This document shows, in pieces, positions 1,588 to 32,305 of a DNA stretch of 51,209 nucleotides (its first letter is position 1; each line of letters starts with the position of its first letter). Origin of the DNA: Escherichia phage BubbaBully; the sequence record OR896831.1. The stretch is one strand, 5' to 3'. The position numbers and the translations under genes are program-made. Below the pieces are notes generated by a model. It was not told where the DNA came from, did no database searches, and was given only the letters and a program-made list of their open reading frames with translations.

Positions 1588-1601
1588 GCGTGTACAATAA
1601 A

Positions 1602-1625
1602 GGCTGGACTTTTCCAGCCTTTTTT
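1602..1625 (+). terminator. intrinsic terminator-like hairpin between terL and portal
   Basis: GGCTGGA-cttt-TCCAGCC stem followed by T6. Confidence 0.55.
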
Positions 1626-1643
1626 ATTATGGGAGATCAGATA

Positions 1644-2918
1644 ATGACCGAGAAAACAAAACTCGTTAAGGCTGACGGCTACAACGAGATCTTTAAGGGA
1701 GATCAGCGAGTGGAGACGCCGTTTTACATGCAGGGCGGCGTTGCAAAGCAGAGTCTTGCAACATTCTACGAGCGTGACGGCATGGCAAAGCGAATCATCG
1801 ACGTGATCCCGGAGGACATGGTTACGCCAGGTTTTAACGTTGATGGCGTGAAAGACGAGGCGGCATTCCGATCCCTTTGGGATGAAAAGAAGCTAAACGC
1901 TAAAATCATTGATGCTCTTTGCTGGTCGCGCCTGTTTGGAGGCTCAGCGATTGTTGCCGTTATCAACGATGGGCGCATGTTGAAATCACCAGCAAAAGAA
2001 GGAGCGCCGCTTGAGGATATTCGCGTTTATGACCGATTCCAGATCCGAGTTGAGAAGCGAGAAACCAACGCGCGAAGCGTGCGCTACGGCGAGCCTGTTT
2101 TGTACACCATTATGCCAGGCGGCGAGATTCCAGAGTATCAGGTGCATTACACGCGAATCTGCATTATCGACGGCGAGCGCTTGCCTAACGAGCAGCGCCG
2201 AAAAAATGATGGCTGGGGCGCGTCAATTCTCAACAAAAAGCTGATCGAGGCAATCCATGATTATAACTATTGCGAGGAGCTAGCAACTCAGCTTTTACGA
2301 CGCAAGCAGCAAGCAGTTTGGAAGGCAAAAGGACTTGCGGATTTGTGCGACGATGAAGAAGGTGTTTCCGCTGCGCGGCTGCGATTGGCTCAAGTTGACG
2401 ACGAAGGCGGCGTGGGTCGGGCAATTGGTATTGACGCAACGGACGAGGAATACGAGGTGCTTAACTCTGACATTTCAGGCGTTGACACATTCCTTGAGAA
2501 GAAAATGGATCGCATCGTTTCGCTTACTGGCATCCATGAAATCATCTTGAAGAACAAAAACACCGGAGGCGTTAGCGCAAGCCAAAACACGGCGCTTGAC
2601 ACTTATCACAAACTGATCGAGCGCAAGCGTAAAGAGGACTACAAGCCGATCCTGGAATTCCTCTTGCCATTCATGGTGGCAGAGCAGGAGTGGTCTATTT
2701 CGTTTGATCCGCTTTCGGTTCCGAGCGACAAAGACCAGGCTGAAATCTTGAATAAAAATATTGACTCGATCAGCAAGGCGATTGAAGGTCAGTTTATGGA
2801 TGTTGAGGAAGGACGCGACACATTGCGCTCTATCGCCCCGTCTCTTAAACTGAAAGACGGCAACAAAATCAAGCTACCGGAACCGGAGCAGGAGCCGGAG
2901 CCAGGAACGGAGGTTTAA
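1644..2918 (+). CDS. portal protein
   Basis: Large ORF directly after terL; start moved to ATG at 1644 (GGGAGA RBS) from alt-start track ORF 1590; position and size typical of portal. Confidence 0.65.
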   Translation: MTEKTKLVKADGYNEIFKGDQRVETPFYMQGGVAKQSLATFYERDGMAKRIIDVIPEDMVTPGFNVDGVKDEAAFRSLWDEKKLNAKIIDALCWSRLFGGSAIVAVINDGRMLKSPAKEGAPLEDIRVYDRFQIRVEKRETNARSVRYGEPVLYTIMPGGEIPEYQVHYTRICIIDGERLPNEQRRKNDGWGASILNKKLIEAIHDYNYCEELATQLLRRKQQAVWKAKGLADLCDDEEGVSAARLRLAQVDDEGGVGRAIGIDATDEEYEVLNSDISGVDTFLEKKMDRIVSLTGIHEIILKNKNTGGVSASQNTALDTYHKLIERKRKEDYKPILEFLLPFMVAEQEWSISFDPLSVPSDKDQAEILNKNIDSISKAIEGQFMDVEEGRDTLRSIAPSLKLKDGNKIKLPEPEQEPEPGTEV

Positions 2919-2921
2919 TCC

Positions 2922-3671
2922 ATGAAGGTAAAAGGAATCGTTAAGCAGTGGAGATTTCCAGAAGCCAGCGAGCGGCAATTAAGCCGCTCCATTAAAGAGG
3001 CTGTAAGGGATCTGGTTGTGTTTATGCGCAGCAAAACAAGGGCGATGAAGTTTGACGCTACAGATCAGGAGATAAGCAGCGCGGAGGACGAGATCAAAGA
3101 TTTCGCAAAAGAGCTTGCGCTCTCCCTGATTGGTCTACTTCCGGCGCTTGCGTCTGCCGTGTACAAGTTCAACTCCAAGCAGTGGGTAAACGTGGCGAAA
3201 TCAACAGGTGGCGCGAACAATCCTGTTATCATCCTGCTAATCGCAGTCGGAGCCAATCAGAGCGAGGAATGGTATCAAACGCTTTACGGCGAGTGGAGCA
3301 ACATGAGCGCGGCCTCGTTTGATAAGCTTTTCACTAACATAATTAACGATTGGTCTGCTAACATCAGGCAAGCAAATTTCACCGGAAAGAAAGCCGAGCA
3401 AGTGAACGAGATCGCGGAGCGTCGATTCGCTGTTTACTCTTCATGGGCTGGAAACCGCGCAACGGGAATCATTGGATCGTGGAATAGTCGCCTTATGCGC
3501 CAGAGGTTGCTAGATGCTGGGGTGAATTCTTATTATTGGCATGGTATGCTAGACGAGCGCGAGCGACTCAAACACTTACAATGGGAGGGAAAGGAGATCG
3601 GGATTGACGAGATTCACCCCTTCCCTGGCGAGGAGTACGGTTGCAGATGTTGGGCTATTCCAAAATGGTAG
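2922..3671 (+). CDS. head morphogenesis protein (Mu F / SPP1 gp7-like)
   Basis: 249-aa ORF immediately after portal; position and size as in Mu-F-like minor head proteins. Confidence 0.55.
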   Translation: MKVKGIVKQWRFPEASERQLSRSIKEAVRDLVVFMRSKTRAMKFDATDQEISSAEDEIKDFAKELALSLIGLLPALASAVYKFNSKQWVNVAKSTGGANNPVIILLIAVGANQSEEWYQTLYGEWSNMSAASFDKLFTNIINDWSANIRQANFTGKKAEQVNEIAERRFAVYSSWAGNRATGIIGSWNSRLMRQRLLDAGVNSYYWHGMLDERERLKHLQWEGKEIGIDEIHPFPGEEYGCRCWAIPKW

Positions 3672-22781: not shown

Positions 22782-23204
22782 ATGCACATTATTACCGGAG
22801 AAATTCGAAAAGAGCCGCGAATCAAGCAGACTCAAAACGGCACGCTTTACGTAGTTGAGTTGTCAGAGCGCTACAAAGACCGTGAAGGAAACGCTCAGTA
22901 CACAAATTACACGTTTTTCTTTAATGCTCGCGCCGGATCTGAGGGTATGAAAAACTGGTATGATGAGGCGTTCCAGGTCGGCAAGGTGATCTCTGTTTCT
23001 TGCGAAGTGCTAAAGGCAGAATTGCGAGAGTATGAGGGGAAGACGTATGTCACCATGCAAGCGGCAGACTTCCCGAAACTGCTGTTTAGCCAGCGCGGAA
23101 TCGCAGCGCCACAACAGCAAAGCCAACCACGGCAGCAAAGCCAAATCCAGCCACGGCAGAGCCAAGAGCCGCCAATCGACTTTGACGACGATATCCCATT
23201 CTAA
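22782..23204 (+). CDS. ssb: single-stranded DNA-binding protein
   Basis: 140 aa; Q/P-rich linker and acidic C-terminal tail DFDDDIPF typical of SSB. Confidence 0.75.
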   Translation: MHIITGEIRKEPRIKQTQNGTLYVVELSERYKDREGNAQYTNYTFFFNARAGSEGMKNWYDEAFQVGKVISVSCEVLKAELREYEGKTYVTMQAADFPKLLFSQRGIAAPQQQSQPRQQSQIQPRQSQEPPIDFDDDIPF

Positions 23205-24380: not shown

Positions 24381-25082
24381 TTATGCAACCGGAGGAGTTG
24401 CAGGAGTTGGGAGCTTGAAGTTGACAAGCTGGTAGATCTGCCCGATCTGGTTGGTCAATGCGGCAGTCTGCGCAAGCTGGCTGTTTTCAAACTCTTTAGC
24501 GCGAAGCTGATCCTTCAGGTCGCAGATCAGAGTTGCCTGCTGCTGTGCGAACTGGTCGCGGATCAGAGCGCGGGTTGCTTCCGCTTCCGTAGCAATAGTG
24601 CGATTAGTCTCGCAGCAACAAGCCTGATCACGAAGTTGTGCCTCGTAAGCCAAGCGTTGAGCCTCGTAGGACTGCGCACATATCGCATTGCCGATGGTGT
24701 TAACGCCGGAGGTGATCGCGGTGTTCACACCAGCGAAGCCCTGGACGCTAGCCAGGAGGTTTTGCGTGTTCTGGCTTGTCAAGCCGTTGAAGGTTGACGC
24801 AGCAGAGCGCTCAATGGTCAGGTTAGTGCCGTTCTGCCCCTGAATGGTTTGCAATCCGATGTTGTTTACGCTGGTTTGCAGGTTATTGATCCCATCAAGT
24901 ACGGCGTTAGCACCGACTGCAACAGCCGCGCCGTCACCGTAGCCATAACCAGGGCCGAATCCACGACCGCCGAAGCCGTTACCGAACCATGAACCTAACA
25001 GGCCACCTACAGCACCGCCAAGACCAGCCGCGCCAGCCTCGCCGCCCATACCGCTAGTTGGTAATAGAGTCATATCAGACAT
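24381..25082 (-). CDS. glycine-rich hypothetical protein
   Basis: 233 aa; Gly-rich N-terminal third, Gln-rich C-terminal part; downstream of tail fibre gene. Confidence 0.5.
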   Translation of the reverse strand: MSDMTLLPTSGMGGEAGAAGLGGAVGGLLGSWFGNGFGGRGFGPGYGYGDGAAVAVGANAVLDGINNLQTSVNNIGLQTIQGQNGTNLTIERSAASTFNGLTSQNTQNLLASVQGFAGVNTAITSGVNTIGNAICAQSYEAQRLAYEAQLRDQACCCETNRTIATEAEATRALIRDQFAQQQATLICDLKDQLRAKEFENSQLAQTAALTNQIGQIYQLVNFKLPTPATPPVA

Positions 25083-25253: not shown

Positions 25254-27392
25254 TTACTGCAACGCTTTGATTAGCAATTTAAGATCTTCAATCTCTGCTT
25301 TCAGGTTGTCGATCTCCTCTTGTTGCTTGTTAACTATCTCCTTTTGCTCTTTGAATGCGTTAACCAAAAGTGCAACAACGCCGTTATAGTTAACACCTTT
25401 AATTGCCTCTCCTTTTGGATCTGGCTCTCCATCGTTATTCAAAGAATGAACCGCTTCCGGTAAAACTCTTTCAACATCTTGCGCTATCAGTCCAGCCTCA
25501 ATACTATAAACGCTGTTTTCATCTTCAATCAGATTGTTTCGTTTGTAGTAAGTGTAACCAGTTAGATAGTCAATTTTGTCGGATGCCGTTTCGATCTCTT
25601 TTAGATTTGCTTTCATCCTTATGTCAGATGTGCTAACCCATTGGTTACAAACTGCACCTCCAGCGTTATTGAAAATGAAGTCTGCACCCTTTACATAAAG
25701 GTGAGTTTCAGCGCCGCCAGCAGACCAGTTAACACAATCCAATCCGGTGATCCAATCGTGACCCCAATGAACAGCCTTAAAAATACTTATTGCAGCATCA
25801 TGTGACGGAATTTCGCACAAAACACCAGTCGCCCTATCACGCCAAGCTGAAAAACTACCAGCTTGCAACTTACCACCAATAAAAAATGAACCAGAACCAG
25901 TCCTAGTACCTTCAACATACGCAAAGCGAGTGTTTTCCGGCGCATATGATGTAATTGGCTTGTATGCCGCAAGTTGCTCTGGAGTCCACGCTATAATATT
26001 TTGACCGTCAGAAACAGCCTGGATAACTCCGTCACTACTCCACCTTAAACCGCTATCGCTATCGCCAATCGCAATCGCATTTGCACCAAGCACATGATCA
26101 GACATGCCTATAGCTAGAGATGAAAAGTTTGAAAGATATCCGCGCTCATCTATCTGCAAATAACTATTACCCCCTCCAGGCCTGAATGTATGAATTGTTG
26201 TTTTAGACAACCCACCTTTGATCTCGTTATAAATTCTAGAGTTTGAAACATCGTTTCCGTTTGCATGTCTATTTGTAAGGTAAATTAAACCAGAGTTAGC
26301 ACCATTCTTTTCAATAAGATGCACGCCCCTAAAAACAGGAATATCAGCCTCACCAATGCCAAAATTGTTTCTTGCTTGACTTATGTTTGTTGCACCAGTT
26401 CCGCCCTGTTGAACACCAAGAGGAATAAACTGTTGCGATGCGGTATTCCAGTAACCCCAACCATCGTTACCAACTGTAAGGTATTTGATCTTATCCGGCG
26501 AATGAATAAACGTTTCACCATCGCCCTGATTAAATCGGTCAACCTTCAACGCCTCCCTTGCAAGGTCTTTGTTTGCAAGATCATTAAGGTTTTGATCTTT
26601 ATGCAGAAGATTTTCAGGCTGTACCTGTTGCACCAATTGGCGAGCTTCATCACGCGCAGTTTCAGCACCAGACTTTGCGTTATTGGCATCAGCGGCATGA
26701 TTTCCAGCCGCATCACGCGCCAATTCAGCCTGATCGCGAGCGCCGAAAGCCTCTTGCTTAATGGCTTCCGTTTCGGTTACGGCTGAATCTTTAATCTGTT
26801 CTGTTTGCGCCTTTATTGCGTCAGTATCTGCCTTAATCTGGTTTGTTTCAGCGACAGCAGAATCCTTTATCTGTTCTGTTTGCGCCTTTATTGCGTCAGT
26901 ATCTGCCTTAATCTGGTTTGTTTCAGCGACAGCAGAATCCTTTATCTGTTGAGTGTCGTTTTTAAGTTGTTCAGTTGCAGCGAGATTGGCGGCTGTTTTT
27001 TCTGCATCACCTTTAACCTGGTTAACCAAATCCTGCAAAGCTTTCAGGTCAAAGTTTTTGAAAAATTCAATAGCTTCCTCGATCTGAGTCTCTTTGCTTT
27101 GATAGTAGCGCAGAGTTTCCGCAACATCTTGCGCGAGGCCATCAACCGTGATTGAGTCATGCAGCAAAATGATGTAATTGCTTCGCCCAATTTCAGCGCC
27201 GCCAGTTGTGATGGCGCGGATTTGTGTGTCACTGATAACTTCACTGATCACAGCCGCTTGAAAAGGAGCATCAATAAAAAAGATTGTTGCACCAGGGCGG
27301 ATTAGTGAAAGTTGCTCACGCCATTTTGTATCATATCCGGTGATGTATCCTTGAGCGTCCATAGACGCTTGACCCTTGCGGTAAATAGCCAT
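25254..27392 (-). CDS. tail fibre protein with C-terminal intramolecular chaperone (peptidase S74-like)
   Basis: 712 aa; C-terminal SDIRMK...YNGVVALLVNAFKEQ chaperone-type segment; internal 25-aa tandem repeats. Confidence 0.8.
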   Translation of the reverse strand: MAIYRKGQASMDAQGYITGYDTKWREQLSLIRPGATIFFIDAPFQAAVISEVISDTQIRAITTGGAEIGRSNYIILLHDSITVDGLAQDVAETLRYYQSKETQIEEAIEFFKNFDLKALQDLVNQVKGDAEKTAANLAATEQLKNDTQQIKDSAVAETNQIKADTDAIKAQTEQIKDSAVAETNQIKADTDAIKAQTEQIKDSAVTETEAIKQEAFGARDQAELARDAAGNHAADANNAKSGAETARDEARQLVQQVQPENLLHKDQNLNDLANKDLAREALKVDRFNQGDGETFIHSPDKIKYLTVGNDGWGYWNTASQQFIPLGVQQGGTGATNISQARNNFGIGEADIPVFRGVHLIEKNGANSGLIYLTNRHANGNDVSNSRIYNEIKGGLSKTTIHTFRPGGGNSYLQIDERGYLSNFSSLAIGMSDHVLGANAIAIGDSDSGLRWSSDGVIQAVSDGQNIIAWTPEQLAAYKPITSYAPENTRFAYVEGTRTGSGSFFIGGKLQAGSFSAWRDRATGVLCEIPSHDAAISIFKAVHWGHDWITGLDCVNWSAGGAETHLYVKGADFIFNNAGGAVCNQWVSTSDIRMKANLKEIETASDKIDYLTGYTYYKRNNLIEDENSVYSIEAGLIAQDVERVLPEAVHSLNNDGEPDPKGEAIKGVNYNGVVALLVNAFKEQKEIVNKQQEEIDNLKAEIEDLKLLIKALQ
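26782..26949. repeat. 75-bp tandem direct repeat (about 2.2 copies) inside tail fibre gene
   Basis: Near-identical 75-nt units in phase with the reading frame, encoding TEQIKDSAVAETNQIKADTDAIKAQ repeats. Confidence 0.8.
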
Positions 27393-27496: not shown

Positions 27497-28453
27497 TTAC
27501 CGTGTCGGGAGTAAAGTTTCCGGCTTGTAAAGCTTTCGCTCTATCCCTTGCCGGAAATTATCGTTAATGGGGAGCATCACGTCAAGCCCTCTCTCCTCAG
27601 CGGCGATTATTACATCCTGATCGGTTGACTTACACACCACGCGCATCTTGCGATCTCCTTTGTATCGGTGCGCAACAATCTCAACGTTATAACTTGAGAA
27701 GCAAGCCCACACCTCTTGGCCTGTAGACAGGTGTATGTGTTGAGCATCGACCCAATCAACGCACAGATAGATCGTGTTGTCAGTCTTACCAGTCACCGCA
27801 ACAGAGCCTCGCGTATAGTCCTTTGCATAAAAAATCTTCTCTCCTAACTCGTCAATCATGAGGATGTTACACATTTCATCATCAAGACCATCGTCATTCA
27901 CGAGGTAGCAAGGGATTGCGTGAATAAGCGACTCTCCGCCATTCTCCAGCGTTTTCACGCCTACAGAGTACATTTCATCATCTGGCGGCGCGATGCCCTC
28001 AAAAACGCTTAGGGGAGTTTTAGGCACGCCTTTCGTTCTTTCCATTACTGCAACACAGTTTTCATGCGGAGCCTGTGAACCGAAAGAGTAACCTGATGCG
28101 CGGGAGGCTCGCTTGTTTGCCTTGACTATATACTCCTGCGGAACCTTTCCGAGAAAGCGGCCTAAAATGTTGATACACTCGCTATAAGGCTCACCAGTTA
28201 GCTTCATTAACCAGCCAATGCCGCTATCATTTCCGCAACCGTTGCACACTGCGCCTCCGTCGCCGTCAGTGCTAAGTTTGTCAGTCCAACGGAATCGGTC
28301 TTTCCCTCCGCAATGAGGGCATGGCTGGTGTTTCTTGTTGAAAACGTCATTACTCAAACCGCAAATGCTTTGAAGCGCATCGCGCCACATTCCTTTCATG
28401 TACGGCAATACATCCTCTTTCTGAAACATCATGTTTGGGTGTACTTCTTGCAT
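27497..28453 (-). CDS. DNA primase (zinc-ribbon type)
   Basis: CPHCGGKDRFRW...CNGCG zinc-binding motif; start set at ATG 28453 with GGAGA RBS (track ORF uses TTG at 28465). Confidence 0.6.
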   Translation of the reverse strand: MQEVHPNMMFQKEDVLPYMKGMWRDALQSICGLSNDVFNKKHQPCPHCGGKDRFRWTDKLSTDGDGGAVCNGCGNDSGIGWLMKLTGEPYSECINILGRFLGKVPQEYIVKANKRASRASGYSFGSQAPHENCVAVMERTKGVPKTPLSVFEGIAPPDDEMYSVGVKTLENGGESLIHAIPCYLVNDDGLDDEMCNILMIDELGEKIFYAKDYTRGSVAVTGKTDNTIYLCVDWVDAQHIHLSTGQEVWACFSSYNVEIVAHRYKGDRKMRVVCKSTDQDVIIAAEERGLDVMLPINDNFRQGIERKLYKPETLLPTR

Positions 28454-28510
28454 GGCTTTCTCCAATAAAAAATCGCGTAGCCGGATGATACCAGATACGC
28501 GATCTTTGGT

Positions 28511-32050: not shown

Positions 32051-32305
32051 ATGTTAAAAGATATCTCTAAAGCGGTTTACTGGATTTTTGTTGTTCTTAT
32101 CGCTCTCTTTATTGTTTCGCTGATAATCTCTCTTGTTGCGTTTGGTGTTGATATAATCTTTGGTGTTGTTGGAATCTTCCTTGCTGTTATATTTGCCCCA
32201 ATGCTATTAACAAAGGCCGCCGCAAGTGATGCGGAAATCGAAGCGCCAAAGACTGAGGTCAAATCTGACACTAGCAACGCAGCTAAATTCTACATGATGA
32301 AATAA
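32051..32305 (+). CDS. hypothetical membrane protein
   Basis: Start ATG 32051; two predicted transmembrane segments. Confidence 0.5.
   Translation: MLKDISKAVYWIFVVLIALFIVSLIISLVAFGVDIIFGVVGIFLAVIFAPMLLTKAAASDAEIEAPKTEVKSDTSNAAKFYMMK

Follow-up and report, generated by a model that had tools for sequence, protein, structure and literature searches.

The Ltf/Stf fibres of Tempevirinae (W011D, PaulSarasin = Bas09, atuna and pSf-1, and the Tlsvirus phages Tls and LL5) are encoded at the same gene position, beside the primase, as the lateral tail fibre of Escherichia phage BubbaBully. Like the latter, they have an N-terminal anchor, a QIK-type shaft built of the same hendecad and heptad motifs, and the junction PENLLHKDQNL. 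Tlsvirus fibres contain one or two extra tandem 11-residue units (up to three in a row) of the same repeat family. A difference lies in a 25-residue block of the shaft, which occurs once in the Tempevirinae relatives, their extra units being diverged, while BubbaBully has it twice in identical copies. The receptor-binding parts of these fibres are unlike that of BubbaBully because the gene is mosaic.

Homology to the first 181 residues of the BubbaBully fibre is also found in the Klebsiella depolymerases DpK2 (RAD2, PDB 7LZJ) and 7VYV/7VZ3. DpK2 is a trimer, the N-terminal part of which was described from low-resolution cryo-EM as an 'extended triple helical bundle' (PMC8552709); its N-terminal 190 residues have no atomic model, and the bundle can be compared at low resolution only. 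In these depolymerases the helical part consists of Ser/Ala-rich heptads without QIK repeats, a beta-helix with capsule depolymerase function forms the distal part, and no S74 match was seen in the depolymerase chains, unlike in the BubbaBully fibre.

A head-to-tail in-frame duplication with variable copy number has been described in a tail fibre of the Enterococcus myovirus EfV12-phi1, although there the unit is 1.8 kb rather than 75 bp, appeared in laboratory culture when resistant hosts exerted selection, was checked by PCR and long reads, and lies in a region without an assigned fold (PMC6365445).

The distal subunit of the long tail fibre of Salmonella phage S16 (PDB 6F45), like the BubbaBully protein, carries a C-terminal PF13884 domain with a Ser-x4-Lys start. 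The S74 intramolecular-chaperone domain is also present in phage T5 pb1 and in the K1F endosialidase. The shafts of these S74 fibres and spikes (S16, T5 pb1, K1F) are different from and non-homologous to the N-terminal helical stalk of BubbaBully, in which the duplication lies. Segmented trimeric coiled coils mixing heptads and hendecads are known from T4 fibritin and the stalks of trimeric autotransporter adhesins, which become longer or shorter in evolution as units that preserve the register are added or lost. No sequence homology between them and the BubbaBully shaft was detected, making them analogues and not relatives. Stutters in coiled coils are accommodated as hendecads, and both heptad and hendecad periodicities are tolerated (PMC4786415).

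The fibre gene and its tandem repeat

The window analysed is the whole 51,209-nt stretch of BubbaBully DNA (OR896831.1). The minus-strand ORF at 25254–27392 encodes a protein of 712 aa (plus stop codon) that matches PHROG tail-fibre families with E-values down to 8e-205 and is identical to NCBI record WWD12622.1, labelled as a tail fiber protein of Escherichia phage BubbaBully; the homologous gene of relatives is annotated as tail fibre or lateral tail fibre. The tail fibre gene assigned to this ORF in a preliminary description is thus correct. BubbaBully is a T1-like Henuseptimavirus phage of the Drexlerviridae, and the gene product is its lateral tail fibre. A primase gene (Zn_Ribbon_Prim, phrog_510; 27497–28465) is located immediately upstream, and relatives keep the same gene order, the recombination/ssb side of the fibre gene being seen in them.

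The conserved N-terminal virion-attachment region (27093–27392, minus strand, aa 1–100) comprises a beta domain at aa 1–76, with strands spanning aa 4–76 in the AlphaFold2 model, followed by the anchor motif ETLRYYQ. Columns of an alignment of 39 homologues are nearly invariant at aa 4–101, the N-terminal matches of PHROG tail-fibre families cover this region, and aa 1–181 resemble the N-termini of the Klebsiella siphophage depolymerases 7vyv, 7vz3 and 7lzj (E about 1e-51). In Drexlerviridae lateral tail fibres, conservation is limited to the far N-terminus (BASEL paper, PMC8594841). The shaft ends at the conserved junction PENLLHKDQNL (26586–26618, minus strand, aa 259–269), downstream of which the receptor-binding part varies between relatives. 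The mosaic structure is seen in nucleotide identity: over positions 26539–27392 the identity to W011D is 93%, and PGN590 and JakobBernoulli reach about 87% in parts of the remainder. In the monomer AlphaFold2 model, aa 347–587 of the receptor-binding part have pLDDT below 50. On the virion, the fibres would form trimers that bind surface glycans, a role regarded as no more than likely in the literature.

Of the 21 arrays that Tandem Repeats Finder revealed in the window, a period-75 array at 26785–26950 with 2.2 copies, 97% matches and no indels stands far above the others (score 318, with 55 for the runner-up). The coordinates given previously, 26782–26949, agree to within 3 nt. Self-comparison at an offset of 75 showed 82 identical bases without a break (26794–26875 versus 26869–26950). 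The two 75-nt units, 26876–26950 and 26801–26875, are 100% identical (0 differences), with 7 more identical bases beyond them, so that the earlier wording 'near-identical' described a real repeat too weakly. The units stand head-to-tail without a spacer, their start-to-start spacing being equal to the unit length of 75, and meet at GCGCAAACAG followed by AACAGATAAAGGATTCTGC (as one string, GCGCAAACAGAACAGATAAAGGATTCTGC). The exact array of two units plus 7 nt thus occupies 157 nt (26794–26950); a partial copy that is older and diverged comes after it. An exact repeat of 82 nt in 51 kb cannot have arisen by chance, and the 75-nt tandem repeat is confirmed as real.

Since 75 nt correspond to 25 codons, the repeat is in frame within the fibre ORF. 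In codon phase, copy 1 (26880–26954, minus strand; exact DNA unit 26876–26950) encodes TQQIKDSAVAETNQIKADTDAIKAQ (aa 147–171), composed of the hendecad TQQIKDSAVAE and the two heptads TNQIKAD and TDAIKAQ, and copy 2 (26805–26879, minus strand; exact DNA unit 26801–26875) encodes TEQIKDSAVAETNQIKADTDAIKAQ (aa 172–196), the peptide quoted in the preliminary description. Next comes TEQIKDSAVTE (aa 197–207, codons 26772–26804), the product of the older, diverged hendecad sub-repeat at 26768–26800 (minus strand), which matches the start of the 75-nt unit at 24 of 33 positions. The first 7 nt of this sub-repeat (26794–26800, AACAGAT on the gene strand) constitute an exact microhomology at the duplication junction. 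Two plus-strand ORFs over the repeat (26761–26952, 63 aa; 26805–27155, 116 aa) were dismissed as repetitive antisense read-throughs in a well-supported gene.

BubbaBully (CPL00172) is listed in the Citizen Phage Library, for which 2x150-nt Illumina reads, Tadpole error correction and Shovill assembly were used (PMC10893117). Because the exact array of 157 nt is longer than any single 150-nt read, the earlier caveat about assembly collapse is fair; with at least three copies (at least 232 nt) the assembly graph would contain a loop, from which an assembler might output just two, and in the opposite case a single true copy would have been spuriously expanded. Nevertheless, the unit-to-unit junction requires reads containing it, which makes one copy very unlikely. 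Reads of 150 nt span the identical stretch of just 82 nt together with unique flanks; reasoning from the sequence, any k-mer above 82 nt would be unique in a two-copy array. Three copies are normally resolved by read pairs. An artefact or miscount of either kind is therefore highly improbable, and the residual risk of assembly error would lean towards under-counting rather than towards an invented duplication, i.e., the copy number is probably two or more.

Predicted helical shaft and its length across the family

The repeat lies in the middle of a predicted continuous alpha-helix (26625–27047, minus strand, aa 116–256), taken here as a trimeric coiled-coil shaft. In the AlphaFold2 model, its 141 residues are uninterrupted, with pLDDT mostly 80–95 at aa 121–250; the model is that of a monomer, and the packing into a coiled-coil trimer is presumed. 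Fourier analysis of aa 100–262 gave the best hydrophobic periodicity at 3.55 residues, a modest signal, the power of which was equalled by 14 of 500 shuffles; for the repeat alone (aa 146–205), harmonics of the repeat prevail in the spectrum, which tells nothing further. Isoleucines in the shaft are spaced by 11, 7 and 7 residues, and heptad 'd' positions are mostly polar or small.

A coiled-coil shaft had been proposed in the preliminary description. The predicted helix, its 3.55-residue period, the 7- and 11-residue length steps described below and the bundle of DpK2, which has the same N-terminus, are all consistent with it, and the trimeric coiled coil can be considered supported but not proven.

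Among related phages, the length of the shaft between conserved anchors ranges from 89 to 229 residues. In 48 related shafts, all changes in length are made up of 7- and 11-residue units. Shafts made of heptads alone have lengths congruent to 5 modulo 7 in 21 of 22 cases, and, with the hendecad pattern defined post hoc, after the sequences had been seen, 45 of the 48 distinct shafts have lengths congruent to 5 + 4 x (number of hendecads) modulo 7, two of the three exceptions being misses of the pattern. The stalk of T1-like lateral fibres between the two anchors would then consist of heptads and countable hendecads only, a rule that could guide the choice of register-preserving lengths when such fibres are engineered or swapped.

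The number of 11-residue sub-repeats, as counted in phage records, IMG/VR and metagenome loci, varies from 0 to 4 among relatives, and 33-nt unit gains occur in the shafts of Tlsvirus relatives. Another indel at short repeats of the shaft is a deletion in phage pSf-1, which lacks three heptads (21 aa, 63 nt) flanked by direct repeats equivalent to a 24-nt pair in the BubbaBully shaft (26643–26666 and 26706–26729, together 26643–26729 on the minus strand; 63 nt apart, 79% identical, with the exact 10-nt core CATCACGCGC). The expectation that changes in copy number alter fibre length is reasonable in view of this variation of the 11-residue unit, but the 25-residue block is doubled in none of the 47 other shafts.

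The length of the duplicated block, 11 + 7 + 7 = 25 residues, corresponds to seven helical turns at 3.57 residues per turn; therefore, the hydrophobic seam should stay in register. Since shafts of the family differ in length by units of 7 and 11, the duplication is likewise expected to preserve the coiled-coil register. The helix would have grown from about 116 to 141 residues, and we estimate that the fibre gained roughly 3.7 nm.

Single-copy relatives and origin of the duplication

MAFFT alignment with four close relatives, W011D, PaulSarasin, atuna and pSf-1, showed a clean gap of exactly these 75 nt in all of them, in line with the recent duplication proposed previously. Consistently, a 501-nt query (window 26600–27100) gave matches of 424–426 nt, some 75 nt short of the query, in W011D, PaulSarasin, atuna, G29-2, slyngel and others. 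The 75 nt without a counterpart in relatives are one or the other of the two identical units. Among 48 distinct shafts, a 14-residue element of the block is doubled only in the window. A degenerate pattern of two ETNQIKxDTDAIK motifs 75 nt apart, which has one match in the window itself, was absent from IMG/VR, JGI metagenomes and GTDB genomes, although an old diverged duplication could escape a pattern this strict at the amino-acid level. Likewise, the doubled peptide was not found in 50,697 phage records, where the best tblastn match was 83% identical. The fibre protein of BubbaBully is alone in its 90%-identity cluster, which thus provides no near-identical single-copy allele for dating the event, and a homologue search with aa 1–290 returned only proteins of up to 507 aa, full-length relatives being absent from its results.

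The nearest relatives differ by about 7–10% in the repeat-bearing part of the gene, versus 0 of 75 nt between the two copies (0.93^75 = about 0.004). Upkeep by gene conversion could be an alternative to youth as the source of this identity. The doubled unit is absent from relatives and the collections searched, and on these sequence comparisons the duplication is confirmed as recent and lineage-specific.

Altogether, the repeat is very probably a recent in-frame 75-bp tandem duplication within a helical, presumably trimeric coiled-coil stalk, generated by slippage or unequal recombination. The ancestral allele, which persists in the relatives examined, would have contained one 25-residue block followed by the second, diverged hendecad. 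The two 33-nt sub-repeats coding for the hendecads lie at a distance of 75 nt, match at 24 of 33 positions and have the exact 7-nt AACAGAT in common. Slipped-strand mispairing or unequal recombination between them would have doubled the intervening 75 nt, and we infer one of these as the most likely mechanism. None of this would have altered the attachment domain, the receptor-binding part or the S74 chaperone. Since the isolate forms plaques, the altered fibre gene at least does no harm; the two-copy variant is presumably functional, and a neutral or small effect on fitness is likeliest.

One could hypothesise instead that a longer stalk was selected for, so that the tip reaches its glycan receptor on the isolation host, for instance through a thicker O-antigen or capsule, with the sub-repeats acting as a built-in hotspot for fast changes of length. 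Shaft length does vary widely in the family, and in repeat units; in-frame tandem duplications arose repeatedly in the tail fibre of EfV12-phi1 under host resistance (PMC6365445), and O-antigen is the presumed target of Drexlerviridae lateral fibres, although rough laboratory strains are infected without a need for these fibres (PMC8594841). Moreover, the duplication was found in one genome only, without recurrence in the collections searched, and a change of 3.7 nm is small against a helix of about 21 nm. Adaptive tuning of length is thus unlikely. A further form of it, with the hendecad and heptad sub-repeats as a recombination hotspot serving as a 'length dial' for tip reach through O-antigen or capsule and the BubbaBully allele as a freshly selected setting, is likewise improbable; if true, phage populations would contain an appreciable share of stalk-length variants produced by the hotspot. 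No sign of a diversity-generating or phase-variation system was noticed in the course of these analyses.

Duplication of the kind favoured here, by slippage or unequal recombination, is an ordinary mode of phage fibre evolution, and nothing in it challenges current understanding. The one-copy and two-copy alleles form a natural pair for asking whether stalk length alters adsorption. Of small practical value is that such a copy-number spot is worth checking in the genome of a phage considered as a therapeutic candidate.

C-terminal chaperone domain

An intramolecular chaperone/auto-processing domain is encoded at 25257–25628 (minus strand, aa 589–712). Pfam Peptidase_S74 (PF13884) matched aa 589–649 over the full profile (1–58) with 44.8 bits against a cut-off of 22, and the fibre protein matched PDB 6f45 with E = 2.9e-20. 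The Pfam match begins with the motif S589-D-I-R-M-K594. A Ser...Lys catalytic pair with a five-residue spacing is characteristic of the start of S74 domains such as those of endosialidase and T5 pb1.

Most of aa 589–712 is modelled with confidence, the pLDDT means for 10-residue blocks being 68–93, and the top Foldseek matches, the only significant ones, were to the ICA domain of MyRF (7dc3, E = 5e-5, TM to target 0.60). Other Foldseek matches (ATP synthase and Uba1 beta-barrels) had E-values above 0.02 and were ignored. The presence of an S74 chaperone domain at the C-terminus, recognised previously as a chaperone-type segment, is thus confirmed by profile, motif and fold, and the mature fibre is predicted to comprise aa 1–588.

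The 75-nt repeat in the lateral tail fibre gene

Tandem Repeats Finder detected 21 arrays in the window, the strongest of which (26785–26950, period 75, 2.2 copies, 97% matches, no indels) scored 318 versus 55 for the runner-up. A base-by-base self-comparison at an offset of 75 revealed one unbroken run of 82 identities (26794–26875 versus 26869–26950), so the two 75-nt units, 26876–26950 and 26801–26875, are 100% identical and followed by 7 nt of further identity. Past the identical units lies a diverged partial copy, which agrees with the first part of the unit in 24 of 33 positions. An exact repeat of 82 nt in 51 kb cannot be a product of chance. The array is in frame within the minus-strand ORF 25254–27392 (712 aa) and is translated, in order, as TQQIKDSAVAETNQIKADTDAIKAQ (aa 147–171), TEQIKDSAVAETNQIKADTDAIKAQ (aa 172–196), and TEQIKDSAVTE (aa 197–207). 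The preliminary description had reported an in-frame 75-bp repeat recently duplicated in the fibre shaft; the observation is real, with coordinates and peptide right to within 3 nt, and its interpretation is essentially correct. Two minor, low-scoring arrays are located at 23118–23174 (period 21, 2.6 copies, 75% matches) and 32141–32178 (period 18, 2.1 copies, 85% matches).

The ORF matches tail-fibre families of PHROG (best E = 8e-205), and its exact product has the accession WWD12622.1 (Escherichia phage BubbaBully, tail fiber protein). A Pfam Peptidase_S74 domain was found at aa 589–649 (44.8 bits, cut-off 22), and the upstream neighbour is the primase gene, an arrangement shared with annotated T1-like phages.

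The methods published for the Citizen Phage Library comprise Illumina 2x150 reads and Shovill assembly (PMC10893117). Spurious expansion during assembly is very unlikely, since the junction between units has to be present in the reads, and the identical stretch, being only 82 nt, is spanned by 150-nt reads. The opposite error, an under-counting of three or more true copies, is possible, because the whole exact array of 157 nt is longer than one read.

Distribution, age, and origin of the duplication

With the region 26600–27100 (501 nt) as the query, W011D, G29-2, PaulSarasin, slyngel, and others matched over exactly 426 nt, 75 fewer than the query, and atuna over 424 nt. In a MAFFT alignment of gene-strand sequences, W011D, PaulSarasin, atuna, and Shigella phage pSf-1 each had a single clean gap of 75 nt. 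Tlsvirus relatives matched over 492 nt (426 + 66), the surplus 66 nt corresponding to an 11-residue unit, TQQIKDxAVxE, that is present in two extra, diverged copies. Among 48 distinct shaft sequences gathered from phage records, IMG/VR, metagenomes, and a protein collection, this 11-residue element occurs in 0–4 copies per shaft, and the 14-residue element TNQIKxDTxAIK is present twice in the window and once in each other QIK-type shaft. When the doubled element was searched for as a degenerate DNA pattern, the window had one match and IMG/VR, JGI metagenomes, and GTDB genomes had none; a tblastn search of the doubled peptide against 50,697 phage records yielded a best match only 83% identical, of the Tlsvirus-type arrangement. 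Since the doubled element is unmatched in the other shafts and in all these collections, the duplication is, as far as the sequences compared indicate, specific to the BubbaBully lineage.

The two copies have no differences at 75 positions, while the nearest relatives differ by about 7–10% in the same part of the gene (0.93^75 ≈ 0.004); on this ground the duplication postdates the divergence from every sequenced relative, provided that the identity of the copies is not maintained by gene conversion. The ancestral order was probably hendecad A1, two heptads, and hendecad A2. The sequences coding for A1 and A2 are offset by 75 nt, agree at 24 of 33 positions, and have the first 7 nt, AACAGAT, in common. 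Misalignment of A2 on A1 in replication or recombination would have duplicated the intervening 75 nt exactly, therefore leaving an 82-nt identity (75 + 7), as seen. The sequence ACAGAACAG (Thr-Glu-Gln) is found at both junctions, internal and distal, and the relatives have Thr-Gln-Gln, so that, most simply, the Gln-to-Glu change would have come before the duplication.

The same stalk also carries 24-nt direct repeats 63 nt apart (26643–26666 and 26706–26729), and between their equivalents in pSf-1 exactly 63 nt, coding for three heptads (21 aa), are missing; this is a second repeat-mediated, register-preserving indel. Adaptive lengthening of the stalk is possible, tandem duplications in tail fibres having been selected in phage EfV12-phi1 (PMC6365445), but the duplication described here is a single occurrence, which leaves this explanation without positive support.

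Stalk register and predicted structure

An AlphaFold2 model of the fibre monomer, built with a 39-sequence alignment, comprises a beta domain (aa 1–76), one continuous helix (aa 116–256, pLDDT mostly 80–95 over aa 121–250) with the repeat (aa 147–207) at its centre, an unmodelled middle part (aa 347–587), and a confident C-terminal domain, which in structure most closely resembles the MyRF intramolecular chaperone domain. The S74 match opens with S589-x4-K594, from which a mature fibre of aa 1–588 is predicted. Residues 1–181 are homologous to depolymerases from Klebsiella siphophages, trimers of solved structure (E ~1e-51); cryo-EM of one of them, DpK2, showed an extended triple-helical bundle in the N-terminal part, which was left unmodelled there (PMC8552709). 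Hydrophobic periodicity over aa 100–262 peaks at 3.55 residues, with equal power in 14 of 500 shuffles, and the Ile spacings inside the unit are 11, 7, and 7.

Stalk length was measured between two conserved motifs, ETLRYYQ and LLxKxxNL, in the window and in the collected relative loci (L001–L047) and proteins (P0001–P0060). Hendecad-free shafts measure 89, 110, 117, 124, 138, 215, or 229 residues, all 5 modulo 7, with 108 as the sole exception. More generally, 45 of the 48 distinct shafts have lengths equal, modulo 7, to 5 + 4 x (number of hendecads), and two of the three misses are due to hendecads unrecognised by the search pattern; since this pattern was drawn up after the data had been seen, shafts made of heptads alone provide the cleaner test. 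Stalk length evidently changes only by heptads and hendecads, judging from these shafts, and both periodicities are tolerated by coiled coils (PMC4786415). The insertion in the window, one hendecad plus two heptads, amounts to 25 residues in seven turns (3.57 residues per turn); it keeps the register and would add ~3.7 nm to a ~21-nm helix at ~0.148 nm per residue. The 75-nt duplication is a fresh allele rather than a new kind of feature: the protein family is known, and the mechanism is a common one. Its interest is local and practical: the copy number is worth checking, and the natural length variant could be used in experiments.

Mosaicism of the fibre locus and related records

BubbaBully (CPL00172) is listed as Drexlerviridae, Henuseptimavirus (PMC10893117), in agreement with the ~85–90% identity of the rest of the genome to Henu7, IsaakIselin, JohannLBurckhardt, N5822, and AS5. 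For most Henuseptimavirus backbones, the primase-side homology ends at ~27321, about 70 nt into the fibre gene. By nucleotide similarity, the body of this gene (~25254–27321) is a mosaic: the 5' ~850 nt of the gene (attachment region and stalk, aa 1–285) are 93% identical to Changchunvirus W011D, and the distal part shares ~87% identity with Hanrivervirus PGN590 and JakobBernoulli, the two being separated by the conserved PENLLHKDQNL motif. This fits the published picture of T1-like lateral fibres, in which conservation is confined to the far N-terminus (PMC8594841).

Directly downstream of the fibre gene, a 233-aa minus-strand ORF (24381–25082) encodes a protein that is rich in glycine at its N-terminus and contains a Cys-Cys-Cys motif. 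It had no match in Pfam and falls in phrog_9288, a family of unknown function. The gene at the matching place in PaulSarasin is annotated as a 'putative sugar-binding protein', and some relatives, e.g., W011D, have no counterpart. This ORF may be a second component of the fibre locus.

In the 5' part of the fibre gene of an IMG/VR locus (IMGVR_UViG_2974632794_000001, 1588–3511), direct repeats that are perfect over at least 300 nt, with spacings of 318 and 600 nt, place the N-terminal region twice in one reading frame, which looks like a misassembly or rearrangement. The MG0656xx 'Campylobacter' records (phages A1xx, E6, and C4) are ~88–89% identical to the fibre gene, like other T1-like coliphages, and the classification of Streptococcus phage MBBL140 (OR786094.1) is Drexlerviridae (Tlsvirus); none of their host labels seems plausible, pointing to contaminated or mislabelled records. 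Across the first 25 kb, the nearest relative of the backbone is Enterobacter phage N5822 (MW032452.1), whose 'circular' record is 78 kb long and has many core genes (terminase, tape measure, J protein, and helicase) in fragments. This suggests that the assembly contains frameshift errors and is concatenated in part. The fibre stalk of N5822 is of an unrelated Ser/Ala-rich heptad type.
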